NCBI GenBank assembly: GCA_028877275.1
Contig: JAPPFP010000006.1
Span: forward strand, 576,775-640,774
Direction: 5' to 3'
DNA length: 64,000 bases
DNA from: Acidobacteriota bacterium
Lineage (GTDB): Bacteria; Acidobacteriota; Thermoanaerobaculia; Multivoradales; Multivoraceae
Within the stretch, counting starts at the first letter, position 1; each line of letters starts with the position of its first letter. The notes beneath the pieces were generated by a model. That model was given only the letters and a program-made list of their open reading frames with translations, searched no databases and was not told where the DNA came from. Made by a program: the position numbers and the translations under genes. Positions 2,387 to 42,819 of the stretch are shown piece by piece.

Positions 2387-4381
2387 TCAGTCCTCTCGGG
2401 GCAGAGCGAAGGCCACAAGTTCCGCCGTCGCCGCCTGGACGTTCGCGTTCCTGCCCACCGCCCTGCCGCCCGGCCTGCCGCCTGCAGGGACCACGATGTA
2501 CTGGCGGCCCTCATGCCGGTAGGTGACCGGCACTCCGTGCAGCGCGGTGTCGGTCTCGATCTGCGCCAGCACCTTGCCGGTCGCCTTGTCGTAGGCGGTG
2601 AGGTAGCTGGCTGTCGCCGTCGGGGCGTCCCAGCTCTCCCTCTTCGGCGAATGGGTGATCAGCAGCGTCCTGGTGACGAGTAGTCCGCCTTCGCGGGTGC
2701 CGCTCGAAGGGCGGCTGCCGAGGGGGCCGAGGTCGAGATGGCGGATCGCGGGGTGATCCGTCGGGCCTTCTCCCAGCGGCACCTGCCAGGCGTGCTCGCC
2801 GGTCTTCAGGTCGATCGCCGTGATGCGCCGGTAGGGCGGTTTCGTCAGGGGCAGCCCCTGGGGGATCTTGAGTCCTCCCGCTCCTCCCGTCGACTTCTTC
2901 ACGTAGCGGAACTCGCTGCGGGCGGGGTCCGGCTTCGCCAGTCCCCAGGCGCCGAGCTGGGTCGTCGACTGGACGTAGACGATCCCGGTCAGGGGATCGA
3001 ACGAGGCGCCGGGATGGTTGGCCCCGCCGCCTGGGCCGGGCGAGACGATCGTGCCGAGCTTGCCTCCTTCGCCGGCGACGATCGAGGGCGTGAAGATCGG
3101 GCCGGTGACAAACGATTCGATGACCTCAAGCGCCTCCCGGCGCAGCCCCGGCGTGAAGTCGACCAGATCGTCGACGGTCAGGCCCTGAAGATCGAATGCC
3201 GGCGGTTTGGTCGGAAACGGCTGGGTCGGCGAGAGCTTCTCGCCGGGCACCGTGGACGGGGGAACCGGCCGCTCGTCGATCGGCCACAGCGGCTCGCCGG
3301 TGACCCGATCGAAGACGTAGAGGAAGGCGGTCTTCGACGCCATGGCCACGGCCTTGCGCAGCCGGCCTTCGACGACCACGTCGACCAGGTTCGGGGCCGA
3401 GGCGTTGTCGTAGTCCCAGATGCCGTGATGCACGGTCTGGAAGTGCCAGACGCGCTCGCCGGTCTCGGCGTCCGCGCAGACCAGGCTCTCGCCGTAGACG
3501 TTGTCACCGTGGCGGTCGCCGCCGTAATAGTCGCTCGACGGTGTCGACGTGGCGAAGTAGACGTAGCCGAGCTCCTCGTCGGCGGCGAGCGGCGCCCACA
3601 CGTTCGTGTTGCCCATCCACTTCCAGGAGTTGTTCTCCCACGTCTCGGTGAAGTCGTCGCCTTCCTGCGGAATCGTGTGGAAGCGCCACTTCTGCTCGCC
3701 GGTGCGCACGTCGTAGGCGCGCACGTGGCCCGGCGGGATGCCCGTCCTCTTCGACGGCACGTCGAAGATCCGCGAGCCGACGATGTACGTGTCGCCGACG
3801 ACGATCCCGGGCGAGCCGGCGCTGATGTCGCGCAGCCGGATCCCCGGGCGGCCGAGGTCGTCGAGCGCCATGTGGACGAAGCCCTCCTCGCCGAAGTCGG
3901 GATCGGGTTGCCCGGTCGCAAGGTCGATCGAGATCAGCAGCTTGCCGGAGGTGGCGAACAGGATGCGCTCCTCGTCGCCGTCGGTCCAGTACTCGATCCC
4001 CCGGGGACTCGAGTACGCGGCCCTGGGCGCCTCGTACGCTTCGGAGTCGTACACCCAGATCTCCTCGCCGGTGGCGGCATCGAGTGCCGCGAGCTGCCAC
4101 AGCGTGGTCATCATGTAGACCCGCCCGCCTACCATGAGCGCCGAGCCGGAGAAGGCGCCGGGTACCTCCCTCACGCGGTGGTCGGCGGACTTCCAGCGCC
4201 AGGCCACGTCGAGCTGGGAGAAGTTCCCGCCGTCGATGTCCGCTAGCGGCGAGTAGCGGCTGAAGGCGTGGTCGCGGCCGTGATGCGGCCACTCCACGTC
4301 CGGGGCGCCGGACTCGGCGAAGGCGGTGGGGCCTGCCAGGGCGGCCGCCACTGCCGCCAGTACCGTGTACGCAGCCCTCAT
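2387..4381 (-). CDS. PQQ-dependent dehydrogenase (8-bladed beta-propeller quinoprotein, methanol/ethanol-dehydrogenase superfamily), secreted
   Basis: The protein has repeated W-containing propeller motifs and GIWDYDNASAPNL (DYD) in the catalytic region. The track ORF was trimmed to the internal ATG at 4381, which gives signal peptide MRAAYTVLAAVAAALAGPTAFA. That ATG overlaps the stop of the upstream gene (ATGA). Confidence 0.85.
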   Translation of the reverse strand: MRAAYTVLAAVAAALAGPTAFAESGAPDVEWPHHGRDHAFSRYSPLADIDGGNFSQLDVAWRWKSADHRVREVPGAFSGSALMVGGRVYMMTTLWQLAALDAATGEEIWVYDSEAYEAPRAAYSSPRGIEYWTDGDEERILFATSGKLLISIDLATGQPDPDFGEEGFVHMALDDLGRPGIRLRDISAGSPGIVVGDTYIVGSRIFDVPSKRTGIPPGHVRAYDVRTGEQKWRFHTIPQEGDDFTETWENNSWKWMGNTNVWAPLAADEELGYVYFATSTPSSDYYGGDRHGDNVYGESLVCADAETGERVWHFQTVHHGIWDYDNASAPNLVDVVVEGRLRKAVAMASKTAFLYVFDRVTGEPLWPIDERPVPPSTVPGEKLSPTQPFPTKPPAFDLQGLTVDDLVDFTPGLRREALEVIESFVTGPIFTPSIVAGEGGKLGTIVSPGPGGGANHPGASFDPLTGIVYVQSTTQLGAWGLAKPDPARSEFRYVKKSTGGAGGLKIPQGLPLTKPPYRRITAIDLKTGEHAWQVPLGEGPTDHPAIRHLDLGPLGSRPSSGTREGGLLVTRTLLITHSPKRESWDAPTATASYLTAYDKATGKVLAQIETDTALHGVPVTYRHEGRQYIVVPAGGRPGGRAVGRNANVQAATAELVAFALPRED

Positions 4382-27895: not shown

Positions 27896-28999
27896 ATGAA
27901 GCGCACCGCGAGCTTGCTGTCGGCAGCCGTCCTCCTTCTCGTCTTTGTCCCGGCCCTTGCGGCCCAGGACGACGGGATTCCACGAACGGCCAGCGGCCGG
28001 CCCGATCTGAACGGAACCTACGACGCCGCCACGCTGACGCCGCTCGAGCGACCGGTGCATCTCGGCGAGCGGGCGTACCTGACGCCGGAGGAAGCCGCCG
28101 AGATCGCCGAGGAGGAGCGCTTGATCCAGGAGGGCGCGGTCCAGCGCTCGGACGCGAACCGCGAGGCACCGCCCGAGGGTGGCGCCAAGGTGGTCGGTCT
28201 GGAACACACCGCCGGCGGCGGCAACGAGTTCGGCGCCGGCAACGTCGGCGGCTACAACCTGTTCTGGATCGACCGGGGAACCGACACTTACCTGGTCGAC
28301 GGCCAGATCCCGACCTCGATCATCATCGATCCGCCGAACGGCCGCATGCCGCCCATGACGGATGCGGCGCAGGCGCAGTTGAGGGCCGCTCTCGCCGGCA
28401 TCATCCGCCCCAACGACGGCACCGCCTGGTGGGTCGAGCACGACGGACCCGGACCTTACGACGGCCCCGAGTCGCTCCCCACGAGCGAGCGTTGCCTCGC
28501 CGGCTTTACCGGCGCCGCACCGACGTTCCCCAGCCTGTACAACAACTACAAGCGGATCGCGCAGACCGAGACGCACGTCGTCATCCTGCTCGAGATGATC
28601 CATGATGCCCGCATCGTGCGCCTCAACTCCGAGCACCCGGGGCCCGAGGTCACGAAGTGGCTCGGTGACTCGATCGGCTGGTGGGAAGGCGACACCCTCG
28701 TCGTCGACACGACGAACTTCCGTGTCGGCGGCCGCGGGTTCCGCGGCGGCTCGGAGAACACCCACGTCGTCGAGCGCTTCTCCGTGCAGCACGATGGCAA
28801 CGTGATCTACAACTTCACCGTCGAGGACGACACCGTCTGGACCGCTCCGTGGACCGGCGAGTACCTGTGGAAGGCCGCTGAAGGCCTCGTCTACGAGTAC
28901 GCCTGCCACGAAGGCAACTACTCGATGGGCGGCACCCTCCGCGGCGCTCGTCTCCTCGAGTCGGAGGCCCTGAGCGGAGCGAGCACCGGCGCCGAGTAG
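27896..28999 (+). CDS. Secreted protein of unassigned family, paralog C (longer, 367 aa)
   Basis: There is a signal peptide. The shared motifs are SGRPDLNGTY, SERCLAG, GWWEGDTLVVDT, VVERFS, WTAPW and YEYACHEGNYSMGGTLRGAR. Confidence 0.65.
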   Translation: MKRTASLLSAAVLLLVFVPALAAQDDGIPRTASGRPDLNGTYDAATLTPLERPVHLGERAYLTPEEAAEIAEEERLIQEGAVQRSDANREAPPEGGAKVVGLEHTAGGGNEFGAGNVGGYNLFWIDRGTDTYLVDGQIPTSIIIDPPNGRMPPMTDAAQAQLRAALAGIIRPNDGTAWWVEHDGPGPYDGPESLPTSERCLAGFTGAAPTFPSLYNNYKRIAQTETHVVILLEMIHDARIVRLNSEHPGPEVTKWLGDSIGWWEGDTLVVDTTNFRVGGRGFRGGSENTHVVERFSVQHDGNVIYNFTVEDDTVWTAPWTGEYLWKAAEGLVYEYACHEGNYSMGGTLRGARLLESEALSGASTGAE

Positions 29000-29062
29000 G
29001 CGCGGCTTCGGGCCGCGTCGCGGCGCATCGCGTCACCCCTGGGTCCCACCCGCCTGCGTCGC

Positions 29063-29219
29063 TGCCGGAGGGGAGGGTCCCAGGGGACGCTTGCGCCTTC
29101 TTGGTTGAAGGGGAGGTAGGGCGCTCGCTGTTGTCGGCTGCGCTCCGTTTCGGCGGTGATCTCTGTAGGGGCGTCGGAAGTCGCTTGCCTCCGACCCCCT
29201 GGGACCCTCCCCTCCGGCA
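29063..29219. repeat. Inverted-repeat element: 24-bp perfect terminal inverted repeats (TGCCGGAGGGGAGGGTCCCAGGGG / CCCCTGGGACCCTCCCCTCCGGCA) flanking ~109 bp of internally structured sequence
   Basis: The inverted repeats were read directly. The inner sequence has nested palindromes (GCGCC..GGCGC, CCTTCTTGGTTGAAGG). A third partial copy, CCCCTGGGTCCCA, lies at 29034. Confidence 0.5.
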
Positions 29220-29352
29220 CCGCCACAGGCTGGACGGCGCCATGTCGCGGCACGACGGCGTTAGCTCTGGGTGCGCGGGTCTTCTGACCCGCGCGCGGCG
29301 GCGACTTCGCCACGGCTTCGACATAGGGTCCGCCGGGACCGCTTGTCGGTGC

Positions 29353-29370
29353 GCCGGCCTTCTGGCCGGC
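29353..29370. repeat. Palindromic box GCCGGCC-TTCT-GGCCGGC, copy 1; about 65 bp incl. downstream MRAAK start is duplicated at 42741-42807
   Basis: The aligned segments 29347-29410 and 42741-42805 share 28 of 29 core positions, plus AGCGGCGA-GCCYGAGT downstream. Confidence 0.5.
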
Positions 29371-29382
29371 ATCCGGTGAGTC

Positions 29383-29823
29383 GTGAGAGCGGCGAAGCCT
29401 GAGTTGACGGCTGGACTATCTGGCCTGGACCACGAGTGCGGCAAGGACGGTCCGGTGGGTACTCCTTGCTGTTCAAGGATCAAGGCCGATCCCAAGGTCG
29501 TCGGAGGCTTCAGTGTCCTGAACGCGCTCGACGATTTCGGCCGTGAGCGGCTCTCGAAGCAGGAGGGATGGCCACGTCACGCGGTCGAGGCTTCCTACCC
29601 AAACGGAGTCCGTGAGATCGAACCGGAGCCCGGCGAGCCCGACGACGACGACCTCGCCCAGGCGATCATCCTCGCCGAGGCTGCGATCGAGGCAGGGTCT
29701 GGCGATCTGGACGTTGAGGAAGTCGGCCGGCGGTTCTGGCTGTGGGCAGAGGAGAATGGCCGCGGTATCGGGATTCAGACCGCAGACGTCTTGTCGCTGA
29801 TCGGCGGTGCCAGGCCGCGCTGA
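29383..29823 (+). pseudogene. ADP-ribosylglycohydrolase-like N-terminal fragment (146 codons, GTG start), likely 3'-truncated remnant
   Basis: GGFSVLNALDDFG, PDDDDLAQAIILAEA and RRFWLWAEENGRGIG resemble the ARH/DraG N-terminal motifs (GxxxGDAxG, DDT, FxLW...G.G). A full ARH is about 300 aa, but this ORF stops 50 bp before the next gene. Confidence 0.35.
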
Positions 29824-29874
29824 GCGCTGTCACGACTCATGCAGCCCCGCGCTGCGTGTGGTCCTCCGTTCTGG

Positions 29875-31032
29875 TCAACGTCGCGGTTGCCGGCGCGGTG
29901 CTCGGTGCCGGAGACGGCGCCAGCTCATCGCGAGACCAGTCCAGACCAGGACGGAGACGCCGAGGGACACGACGCCGGCGATCGTCTGCCCGACCACGCC
30001 GTACACCTCTCCGGTGTGGGCAAACCGCAACCAGCGGCGAATCTTGAAGCCGCGCGTGAAGGTCGGATAGCCGGCGCGCCCGACCAACTCGCCGGTCGCC
30101 CGGTCGAACAGCAGGTCCTCGCGCTTCGACGGCTGGCGGCCCGTCCCGCGGTCGACCGTAACCACGACGGGATCGTGAGTCGACTCGGGAAGGTCGATCG
30201 TGAGCGTCCGCCATCCGGGCGTCCCGGCGCCGGCCTTCGCGGCCAGTGCCTGCAGCTCGACAAGCGGGGTCGCCGGGTCCGGCGCGGCGGATGGGGTCTT
30301 CCACACGTCCGGCTGCGGCGGCCGCGGCGACTGCTGAAACGGTGGCGTGTCGCCCGCCAACCGATGGACGAGGTCGGCGGCCCATTGATACGAGATGGTG
30401 GCCCCGCTGAAGACGATGATGACAAGCGGAACGGCCGACCAGAAGCCGATGACCTTGTGCCAGTTGTAGTCGCGCGCCCGCCCTCTGAGGCGGGGGCGAA
30501 ACCATAGGCCGTGTTTCCAGGCGGCGCGGCTGCGGGTCGACGGCCACCAGAGGTAGATCCCGCTGACGAGCAGAAACAGGAACCCGAGGTTGGCGGTTGC
30601 CACCACCGTCCGACCGATGATCCGGTGTTCCCCGTCGAGAGCGAACCACCGGTGCCAGTACATGACGCTGCGGAGGAAGCGTCGCGTCCGCGTGTCGCCG
30701 TTGCCCAGCCGCTCGCCGGTGAATCGGTCGAGGTAAACGGTGGCTCCATCGTCGAGCCCGACGACCGCGGGCTCTCGCGGATCCCTGTGCAACTCAGCGG
30801 AAGTGACGGGACCGGCGGGCGTCCCGCCGGCGACGCGCGCGATCAACTCGTCGAGCCCGAGCGGCGCGACGCCCGGGGAGGGTGGGTCGGCGCGATAGTC
30901 GCGCAGCGCCCACTCGTTGAGCTGCGCCTCGTAGGTGAGGATCACGCCGGTCACCGCCAGCATGAGGATCACGACGGCGGCAGTGACGCCGACCGCCAGA
31001 TGGATCCAGAAGAGCGCCCTGCGCAGGGACAT
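29875..31032 (-). CDS. PepSY-associated TM helix protein (PiuB-like)
   Basis: The N-terminus is MSLRRALFWIHLAVGVTAAVVILMLAVTG. The topology is 4 TM helices around periplasmic PepSY domains. Confidence 0.8.
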   Translation of the reverse strand: MSLRRALFWIHLAVGVTAAVVILMLAVTGVILTYEAQLNEWALRDYRADPPSPGVAPLGLDELIARVAGGTPAGPVTSAELHRDPREPAVVGLDDGATVYLDRFTGERLGNGDTRTRRFLRSVMYWHRWFALDGEHRIIGRTVVATANLGFLFLLVSGIYLWWPSTRSRAAWKHGLWFRPRLRGRARDYNWHKVIGFWSAVPLVIIVFSGATISYQWAADLVHRLAGDTPPFQQSPRPPQPDVWKTPSAAPDPATPLVELQALAAKAGAGTPGWRTLTIDLPESTHDPVVVTVDRGTGRQPSKREDLLFDRATGELVGRAGYPTFTRGFKIRRWLRFAHTGEVYGVVGQTIAGVVSLGVSVLVWTGLAMSWRRLRHRAPRRQPRR

Positions 31033-42724: not shown

Positions 42725-42746
42725 ACACCGGGTGCCCTGCCGGTGC

Positions 42747-42764
42747 GCCGGCCTTCCGGCCGGC
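42747..42764. repeat. Palindromic box GCCGGCC-TTCC-GGCCGGC, copy 2, followed by 12-codon MRAAK... mini-ORF remnant (42769-42807)
   Basis: The box starts 22 bp after the stop of the permease gene and lies 55 bp before the sulfatase start. Confidence 0.5.
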
Positions 42765-42819
42765 ATCCATGCGAGCAGCGAAGCGGCGAGCCCGAGTGCC
42801 CGTGTAGCCTAGAAGGACG

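Follow-up and report, generated by a model that had tools for sequence, protein, structure and literature searches.

Several families of bacterial intergenic repeats, including the ERIC/IRU sequences, the Correia elements and the RIMEs of Rhizobium, consist of 100–200 bp units built on long imperfect palindromes. They lie in transcribed intergenic regions, their copy number is low to moderate, and they influence how stable an mRNA is or how it is processed, RNase III cleavage of Correia hairpins included. In Correia elements and miniature inverted-repeat elements (MITEs), the inverted repeats are terminal and accompanied by TA duplications. REPINs number tens to hundreds of copies, with invariant 16-mers at their two ends and a RAYT gene. 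They form long hairpins from conserved inverted parts, and compensatory changes are common on both sides (PMC3116915).

Here we describe an inverted-repeat element that belongs to a previously undescribed family of ~190-base hairpin elements from one uncultivated Acidobacteriota group. It was found in a 64-kb stretch of DNA, the whole of which is referred to as the window and whose nearest named relatives are Ca. Multivorans and Thermoanaerobaculia. The stretch matches a scaffold of 1.35 Mb from an Acidobacteriota metagenome-assembled genome. With a probability of roughly 0.5, we read the element as a lineage-specific structured 3'-UTR module whose copies spread by duplication of the whole unit. 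It stands 3' of the stop codon of a gene for a 367-aa protein and is followed in the window by a truncated ADP-ribosylglycohydrolase (ARH) ORF and then by a convergent PepSY_TM gene. Related loci are numbered with the prefix L. The features of the region are as follows.

27896–28999, + strand: upstream gene for a 367-aa hypothetical protein without a Pfam domain (ORF call; also called on the source scaffold)
29000–29017, + strand: small GC hairpin GCGCGGC-TTCG-GGCCGCG directly 3' of the stop codon (sequence and predicted fold)
29036–29051, + strand: 5' strand of the basal helix and, from 29047, the start of the base motif CACCCGCC
29052–29065, + strand: 5' strand of the lower stem, GCCTGCGTCGCTGC, variable (within-copy pairing, double-sided changes)
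29066–29086, + strand: 5' strand of the upper stem, CGGAGGGGAGGGTCCCAGGGG, conserved (near-invariant among paralogues)
29087–29195, + strand: apical domain, 109 nt (consensus fold)
29196–29216, + strand: 3' strand of the upper stem, CCCCTGGGACCCTCCCCTCCG, conserved
29217–29230, + strand: 3' strand of the lower stem, GCACCGCCACAGGC, variable
29228–29246, + strand: 3' base motif GGCTGGA (29228–29234), then the 3' strand of the basal helix
29273–29294, + strand: hairpin GCGCGGGTC-TTCT-GACCCGCGC (sequence and fold; kept in L003 and L018)
29344–29404, + strand: 60-nt block with a second hairpin, GCCGGCC-TTCT-GGCCGGC, at 29353–29370
29434–29561, + strand: piece of a gene found intact in L003 (353 aa), with 90% nucleotide identity to L028:4024–4151
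29584–29930, + strand: decayed ADP-ribosylglycohydrolase gene, fragments in two frames (Pfam PF03747, positions 17–104 of 287)

The preliminary description had reported a 24-bp perfect inverted repeat with an adjacent hairpin, and both were confirmed. The sequence TGCCGGAGGGGAGGGTCCCAGGGG at 29063–29086 has its exact complement at 29196–29219 across a 109-nt spacer, and the hairpin is present at 29273–29294. The arms extend outward to 47 nt (29040–29086 and 29196–29242) with 83% complementarity, and each contains two overlapping 7-bp palindromes, GGGTCCC and CCCAGGG. The predicted fold of a 301-nt region reached −187 kcal/mol on the + strand (z = −5.4), with none of 100 shuffles folding as well, and −172 kcal/mol on the − strand. 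A third partial arm described at 29034 exists as a sequence (CCCCTGGGTCCCACCC, 29036–29051); it is not a separate arm but belongs to the rod itself, as the 5' strand of its basal helix. It was also considered as a switch partner of the 5' arm and rejected, as the segment is conserved only at the window's locus and elsewhere reads as basal helix. Pattern, BLAST and nhmmer searches found no further copies in the 64-kb window, where the element is single.

The repeat had further been placed in a gene-free island of 0.9 kb. This is correct for 455 nt of intergenic DNA (29000–29454), and the rest consists of the decayed fragments at 29434–29561 and 29584–29930. According to tblastn, the first fragment represents residues 26–91 of the 353-aa protein of L003. 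The ARH gene remnant noted nearby was recovered both by the PF03747 match and by tblastn matches in two frames at 29584–29930, where the intact 357-aa glycohydrolase of L027 aligns through residues 39–116 and 175–224 in differing frames. The interval from 29402 to ~29930 is the true gene-decay scar, a mosaic of fragments of two genes. Homology between the window and L003 stops at 29401, ~160 nt past the element, and the DNA beside the window's copy carries different genes in the window, L003, L018, L027 and L028. Local GC-content is not lower, as had been stated: it is 0.70–0.75 in the element region (28900–29400) versus ~0.68 around it, and dips to 0.63–0.66 only at 29300–29600.

Three ordinary terminator-like hairpins surround the window's copy. 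The hairpin at 29000–29017 is retained in L003 through a compensated change (GCGCAGC...GCTGCGC). The one at 29273–29294, terminator-like in look and without a U tract, is a paralogue of the hairpin at 29353–29370, from which it differs by compensated changes. The 60-nt block that contains the latter recurs at 42738–42797 and is unrelated to the inverted-repeat element. A terminator-consensus scan of 28500–30300 returned 0 sites, a promoter consensus scan around the element found no site, and no tRNA or tmRNA was detected in the window. The ORFs over the element (29101–29379 on the + strand and 28918–29313 on the − strand) had no Pfam match, and a coding reading is disfavored by indels in the alignment of copies.

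To define the family, 185,579 genomes, one per species, were scanned for the exact arm GGAGGNGAGGGTCCCAGGGG with a 19-of-20 pattern. The scan yielded 19 loci, nearly all in Ca. Multivorans or Thermoanaerobaculia, at 1–3 exact-arm loci per genome, including complete chromosomes of 4.4–5.4 Mb. Both arms were present at nine of these loci, 127–129 nt apart from start to start. BLAST and nhmmer identified full-length homologues with 70–98% identity, spacer included, at 16 of the scan loci and an additional one at L003. A scan of JGI metagenomes contributed one real locus, L026, with two more copies; L025 was a chance match. The full copies found number 18, and several others are truncated (L009, L020, L016:3974–4107 and L008:4641–4798). 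Searches of viral contigs, plasmids and phages returned 0, 0 and 0 matches.

Rfam produced no match at gathering score in the window and nothing overlapping the element at E ≤ 10, and seven loci bearing copies gave no match at E ≤ 1. The database check proposed in the preliminary description assigned no family name in the window or the seven related loci. No described family matches the element by sequence or model. Nor is it a single-copy, unconserved sequence, the outcome that would have indicated a simple deletion scar: copies exist in relatives, with arms 95–100% conserved. At the orthologous locus L003, where the upstream protein is ~91% identical, the same element follows the same gene. 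Its perfect repeat there is 35 bp long, and in three pairs of the window's 24-bp stem both partners are replaced (TG..CA to CA..TG and G..C to A..T).

Every full copy lies 7–47 nt 3' of the stop codon of a co-oriented gene, and all are in sense orientation relative to it. The upstream genes are unrelated to one another across contexts. They encode the 367-aa protein (the window, L003, L007, L011 and L018, with the element behind every orthologue), ribosomal protein L17 at the end of the rpoA-rplQ operon (rplQ; L006, L016 and L026), a DUF4175 protein (L008 and L012), a 376-aa protein (L013, L015, L019 and L023), the last product of the dnaK-hspR operon (L017, L021 and L022), and EF-G (fusA; L026). 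In two contexts, only 7–10 nt separate the stop codon from the unit. Since some copies are not independent, five independent contexts were counted, all sense. The two L026 copies have similar lower stems, and the rplQ and EF-G genes are convergent neighbors in relatives; the L008 copy after an acyl-CoA dehydrogenase gene has its lower stem in common with a convergent neighboring copy. No transposase was found beside any copy in the loci examined, and no RAYT (Y1 transposase) gene within the examined loci of 8–21 kb.

The unit spans ~190 nt (29047–29234 in the window), or ~210 nt with the basal helix, whose sequence is variable between loci. It consists of a conserved, mismatch-bearing base, a variable lower stem, a near-invariant upper stem and an apical domain. 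At the base, an internal loop of 5'-CACCCG and 5'-CTGGA places two C-G pairs between conserved C.U and A.A mismatches. Five of the six gene contexts preserve the motif CACCCG(C/T)C; within the sixth, L019 retains it and L013, L015 and L023 have lost it. The lower stem of 13–16 bp varies in sequence between copies and retains its pairing, and the upper stem of 21 bp is almost invariant. The rod is not followed by a U tract, the sequence there being CTGGACGGCGCC.

The apical domain measures 107–109 nt across copies and combines three conserved blocks (CGCTYGCGC, GCGCTCGCTnnnnTCGGCTGCGCTCCG and GTCGCTTGCC) with two variable hairpin regions. In the consensus fold, a helix joins 29089–29097 with 29120–29128, and long-range pairs link 29136–29138 with 29187–29189 and 29142–29143 with 29183–29184. 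Two predicted apical hairpins change register between close orthologues, and much of the domain varies freely. An alternative hairpin from the single-sequence fold, GGGCGC/GCGCTC, was rejected: it is broken in L013, L015 and L023, whereas GCGCC/GGCGC covaries. We also considered whether the lower stem could be an older terminator with a mobile unit in its loop. This is disfavored by the conserved motifs that lie outside the variable stem and by the graded similarity of the lower stems, which fits descent, as seen in the comparison with L026 and L030.

Pairing of the rod was evaluated on an alignment of mini-constructs in which, for counting only, the apical domain was swapped for GAAA. Overall, 90.5% of cells were paired. 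Double-sided changes occurred in 18 of 39 pairs versus 8.7 ± 1.7 in shuffles, none of which reached the observed value (0/500). Sliding the partner by 1–3 columns as a control lowered pairing to 41–58%. Lower stems were 82% Watson-Crick within a copy versus 41% between arms of different loci, and their 5' strands are only 39% identical between loci. In the apical helices, double-sided changes occurred in 8 of 18 pairs versus 1.6 in shuffles (0/500 reached the observed count).

A diverged copy after rplQ, L026:4413–4597, extends this result to the 'invariant' upper stem. Its strands CCGAAGGAGGGGGTCCCTGCGG and CCGCAGGGACCCCCTCCTTCGG differ in sequence from those of the other copies and are still fully complementary, which indicates that pairing is maintained there too. 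This copy was found via the base motifs and not via the arms; the upper-stem pairing is therefore no artefact of the way in which copies were found.

Conservation was compared with four-fold sites of the 367-aa gene, which are 67–69% identical between the window and L003 and L007. Against L003, L007 and L011, the identity of the window's copy was 95–100% in the upper stem, 77–82% in the apical domain and 64–85% in the lower stem, and that of the flanking intergenic DNA was 25–67%. Between the window and L018, 164 nt of the element are identical, with four-fold sites at 87%. An insertion or deletion scar had been one proposed explanation of the region. It stands for the neighboring 29402–29930 and fails for the element, whose arms are 95–100% identical against 67–69% at synonymous sites. 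At other loci, the apical domain was better conserved than four-fold sites in two comparisons (0.90 versus 0.73; 0.74 versus 0.61) and not in two others (0.63 versus 0.70; 0.80 versus 0.89). Given these mixed results, constraint is clear for the arms and blocks, not for the whole center. The absence of a U tract, and apical conservation that at some loci does not exceed that of four-fold sites, are observations that run against a 3'-UTR role.

Several properties of the apical domain are strand-specific. On the sense strand it is rich in G+U (about G46 C35 A11 T26), with a T>A skew opposite to that of the neighboring coding strand. In all 18 copies it folds better on the sense than on the antisense strand, by 3.7–18.6 kcal/mol (mean 11.8). 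Single-sided changes in the basal and apical helices are mostly G.U on the sense strand. The apical domain thus points to a sense RNA. A hand count of single mismatches in the lower and upper stems gave ~6 G.U versus ~11 A.C events on the sense strand. With no G.U bias in the stems, the rod fits strict maintenance of Watson-Crick pairs, on either strand or at the DNA level. As an observation on the 3'-UTR reading, this mismatch spectrum suits a DNA-level or strand-symmetric constraint as well as an RNA one.

The strand-symmetric mismatches of the rod are among the features expected of a DNA-level site for protein binding or recombination (a paired operator, a nucleoid-organising site or a hot spot) that would act on double-stranded or cruciform DNA. 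The strong conservation of the arm sequence itself, beyond pairing, the overlapping palindromes GGGTCCC and CCCAGGG in each arm and the rearrangement hot spot beside the window's copy agree with such a site. We nevertheless regard it as very improbable, because L026:4413–4597 destroys the CCCAGGG palindrome and keeps arm complementarity, the lower stem covaries without a fixed sequence, the apical domain is asymmetric between strands, and synteny breaks at 29401, ~160 nt past the element, rather than at the element.

The sense-strand folding advantage in 18/18 copies, the covariation of the apical helices and the retention of the blocks GCGCTCGCTnnnnTCGGCTGCGCTCCG and GTCGCTTGCC among paralogues whose lower stems are ~39% identical could instead reflect stand-alone or 3'-UTR-derived ncRNA genes. 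The rod would then be an RNase III processing stem and the excised ~108-nt apical domain the product, which would bind a protein or pair with targets via its conserved single-stranded blocks; the perfect 24–35-bp duplex does exceed the need of a terminator or stability hairpin. Several findings make this doubtful: no promoter-like site lies nearby, only 7–10 nt separate stop codon and unit in two contexts, much of the apical domain varies freely with two predicted hairpins shifting register in close orthologues, and relatives manage without the element at the same sites. In its boldest form, the idea would define a new class of bacterial ncRNA, a ~108-nt branched RNA on a 35–47-bp processing stem in rplQ, fusA and dnaK 3' UTRs, released by RNase III and served by a dedicated protein or RNA partner, with the C.U/A.A base loop as the recognition site. 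We put this forward as speculation that is rather unlikely.

The sites occupied by the family show considerable turnover. In L027, where the upstream protein is 90% identical, the element is absent and an intact gene for a 357-aa ADP-ribosylglycohydrolase begins 44 nt after the 367-aa gene. In L028 (upstream protein 88% identical), a 52-nt short form, CACCCGCCCGTCTGAGGCAGGAGGGGTCCCCTCCTGCCCCGACTGGGCTGGA, occupies that place; it retains the base motifs together with a hairpin, the tip of which is identical to the outer portion of the upper stem. In L030 and L032, two 5' halves fused head to head lie between rplQ and the EF-G gene, which is convergent with it. The rplQ operon of L031 is 93% identical, yet only plain GC hairpins follow rplQ, and L033 is likewise. 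At the same position, L034 has canonical U-tract terminators and L035 a different palindromic insertion of 220 nt. As these relatives show, no single site requires the element.

Traces of exchange are also present. In L006, a canonical 5' arm faces an L026-type 3' arm, which results in four mismatches, and L012 and the second L008 copy have an apical segment in common. Fusions, hybrid arms, common segments and turnover argue for duplication of copies and exchange between them at the DNA level. The truncated copies, the L030/L032 fusion, the hybrid arms of L006 and the presence or absence of the element at a site resemble the dynamics of repeat DNA, an observation that weighs against a 3'-UTR reading.

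Such dynamics would also be expected of selfish, non-autonomous REPIN- or MITE-like DNA that moves as a single-stranded DNA hairpin through a transposase encoded elsewhere. Sites just 3' of genes would be preferred, the arms would be conserved for recognition by the transposase, and compensation would come from hairpin-templated correction. Consistent with this, there are several loci per genome with identical 21-bp inverted arms, truncated and fused copies, presence and absence at the same gene end (the window versus L027, L030 versus L031), exchange between copies as seen in the L006 arms and the apical segment of L012 and the second L008 copy, and a rod without G.U preference. REPINs are likewise long hairpins with compensatory changes (PMC3116915). 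However, exact 19-mer-arm loci number 1–3 per genome versus hundreds for REPINs. The conserved arms are internal, with base motifs outside the variable stem and no target-site duplication, no transposase is adjacent in the loci examined, and the element is absent from the plasmids, phages and viral contigs searched. All full copies have one orientation to the upstream gene, and copies persist at orthologous sites across species with four-fold identity of only 61–70%. We therefore consider a selfish origin unlikely, though still credible.

The reading as a 3'-UTR module rests on the sense position after stop codons, the compensated pairing, the constrained arms and blocks, the sense folding advantage and the replacement of the element by terminator hairpins in relatives. 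The structured character envisaged in the preliminary description is supported, as are conservation and multiple copies: copies with covarying stems occur at several loci of related genomes, in a fixed orientation after genes. Under the 3'-UTR module reading, the element would form part of the upstream gene's mRNA, as its 3' tail, and this RNA would fold as a 35–47-bp rod capped by a 108-nt branched, G+U-rich domain. The rod itself would comprise the basal helix, the C.U/A.A internal loop, a lower stem bound to pair but free in sequence, and an upper stem whose sequence is fixed.

We infer a role as an mRNA 3'-end module, which may block transcription in the manner of a terminator, hold back 3' exonucleases or insulate convergent genes from each other. 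With three other terminator-like hairpins around the window's element, a terminator role may be redundant. A long perfect duplex is the kind of substrate cut by RNase III, and cutting could release the apical domain. New copies would arise by DNA duplication of the whole unit, including local inverted duplication between convergent genes; exchange between copies probably contributes as well, and there is no sign of a dedicated transposase.

If this is correct, core operons of an uncultivated marine Acidobacteriota lineage end in a recognisable module of conserved sequence. The module would be far larger than a terminator hairpin, absent from Rfam and amenable to modeling and searching, and it would give annotators a 3'-end marker in a clade where canonical U-tract terminators appear scarce. 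The family also provides a clean example of compensatory evolution sustained over a long time in a 40-bp duplex, and it offers a test of whether REP-like repeats serve the host primarily as RNA elements or are selfish DNA. Host function is favored here by the low copy number and the position strictly tied to gene ends. No new biological principle is claimed.

Among the described systems, the proposed identification as a MITE did not hold up: the perfect repeats are internal, target-site duplication is lacking, and there are only 1–3 exact-arm loci per genome. Rather than ending at the repeats, paralogue similarity runs past them to CACCCGCC, GGCTGGA and the basal helix. The sequences flanking the two arms pair with each other as inverted complements (82% Watson-Crick) and do not repeat directly, and the empty site in L027 has no flank in common that would define a target duplication. 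Many copies with a related IS, as in MITE families, were not observed, with one copy in the window, 1–3 exact-arm loci per genome and no adjacent transposase in the loci examined.

The element has features in common with the REP/BIME sequences and REPINs of Proteobacteria. Both they and the element are extragenic, often between convergent genes or in 3' UTRs, and both form a long hairpin in single-stranded DNA or mRNA from inverted conserved parts, with compensatory changes seen in the present family too. Copies of both remain at orthologous sites, and both include decayed or partial ones. Unlike the invariant ~16-mers of REPINs, which reach high copy number, the arms were found at 19 loci in 185,579 genomes, with ≤3 per genome. 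The invariant arms are also internal in the element, beyond them lie a variable stem and another conserved motif, and the center of 108 nt carries conserved blocks. A REPIN model fails on copy number and on the placement of the conserved parts.

An intrinsic terminator likewise has a GC-rich stem-loop directly 3' of a gene. The element shares this position after the stop codon, and at these gene ends relatives have either a plain hairpin or a canonical terminator. It differs in having no U tract after the stem, a rod of 35–47 bp versus 5–15 bp, and a conserved 108-nt domain instead of a loop. Integron attC sites, too, are structure-defined imperfect palindromes at the 3' end of an ORF, with fixed orientation and conserved unpaired stem bases. 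However, the genes upstream of the element are core, syntenic housekeeping genes and not cassettes, and no arrays are formed. The attC core sites RYYYAAC/GTTRRRY are absent, the base motifs being CACCCGCC and GGCTGGA, and no integrase was among the neighboring genes listed.

Compared with ERIC, Correia and RIME sequences, the element has no known sequence similarity to them, possesses neither terminal repeats nor TA duplications, and is placed in fixed sense orientation directly after stop codons. By kind, it sits with the intergenic palindromic repeats and 3'-UTR hairpins (REP/BIME, REPIN, ERIC, Correia, RIME). It is set apart from them by its architecture of internal invariant arms, outer covarying stem, mismatch loop and branched center, and also by its low copy number and strict placement.

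The intergenic region that follows the 367-aa gene (27896-28999, + strand; a hypothetical protein) contains, besides the element itself, a small hairpin at the stop codon:

29000-29017: small hairpin GCGCGGC-TTCG-GGCCGCG, immediately 3' of the stop codon that ends the 367-aa reading frame

This hairpin is maintained in L003, a locus with an orthologue of the gene and the element, through a compensated change from G-C to A-T. A 60-nt block present in two copies in the window (29344-29404 and 42738-42797; 82% identity) holds the hairpin GCCGGCC-TTC(T/C)-GGCCGGC. Such hairpins probably represent an ordinary terminator-type family of the lineage, without a U tract. The window hairpins at 29270-29292 and 29348-29370, both 3' of the element, are paralogues (83% identity) with a common TTCT loop and compensated stem differences (GCGCGGGTC/GACCCGC versus GCGCCGGCC/GGCCGGC). 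With respect to genomic position, both copies of the 60-nt block were placed shortly 3' of a + strand gene, and a similar hairpin was located 3' of rplQ in L031.

Further downstream, the called 122-aa 'ADP-ribosylglycohydrolase' ORF (29434-29561 and 29584-29930) is a chimera that fuses part of a gene encoding 353 aa, which L003 retains in intact form, to two glycohydrolase-gene fragments in different frames. The gene decay at 29434-29930 is recent, since L018, from the same species, retains approximately 1 kb of extra DNA there.

A decayed relative of the element was detected at L005:5697-5870 (nhmmer E = 0.002), 3' of a 1110-aa gene and upstream of the 367-aa gene orthologue. Its arms are complementary only in part, and it folded no better than shuffled sequences (z = -1.4).

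At two loci with the element after a 376-aa gene (L013:671-729 and L023:1652-1710), a rough ORF call carried the convergent ABC-2/CAAX protease gene into the element's 3' arm, where it runs for about 20 codons before a stop; in L019 this gene stops short of the element. The element may have changed the C-terminus of this protein.

L016 has, about 2 kb away from its true rplQ, a partial rpoA'-rplQ duplicate (3421-4107) that shares 88% identity with the copy in L030. A truncated copy of the element and an arm remnant of 30 nt border this duplicate, which points to local rearrangement around the elements. The genomes of L035 and L034 are near-identical, with flanks 96-98% identical, but in the stretch separating rplQ from the convergent gene L035 (2400-2650) has about 220 nt of inserted DNA. 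A different long palindrome lies in this insertion, together with two ~30-nt repeats in tandem (CGGAGGGCACCCTGACCTCCGCCCGCCAGC). The insertion represents a hairpin-repeat family of its own, at the same kind of site.
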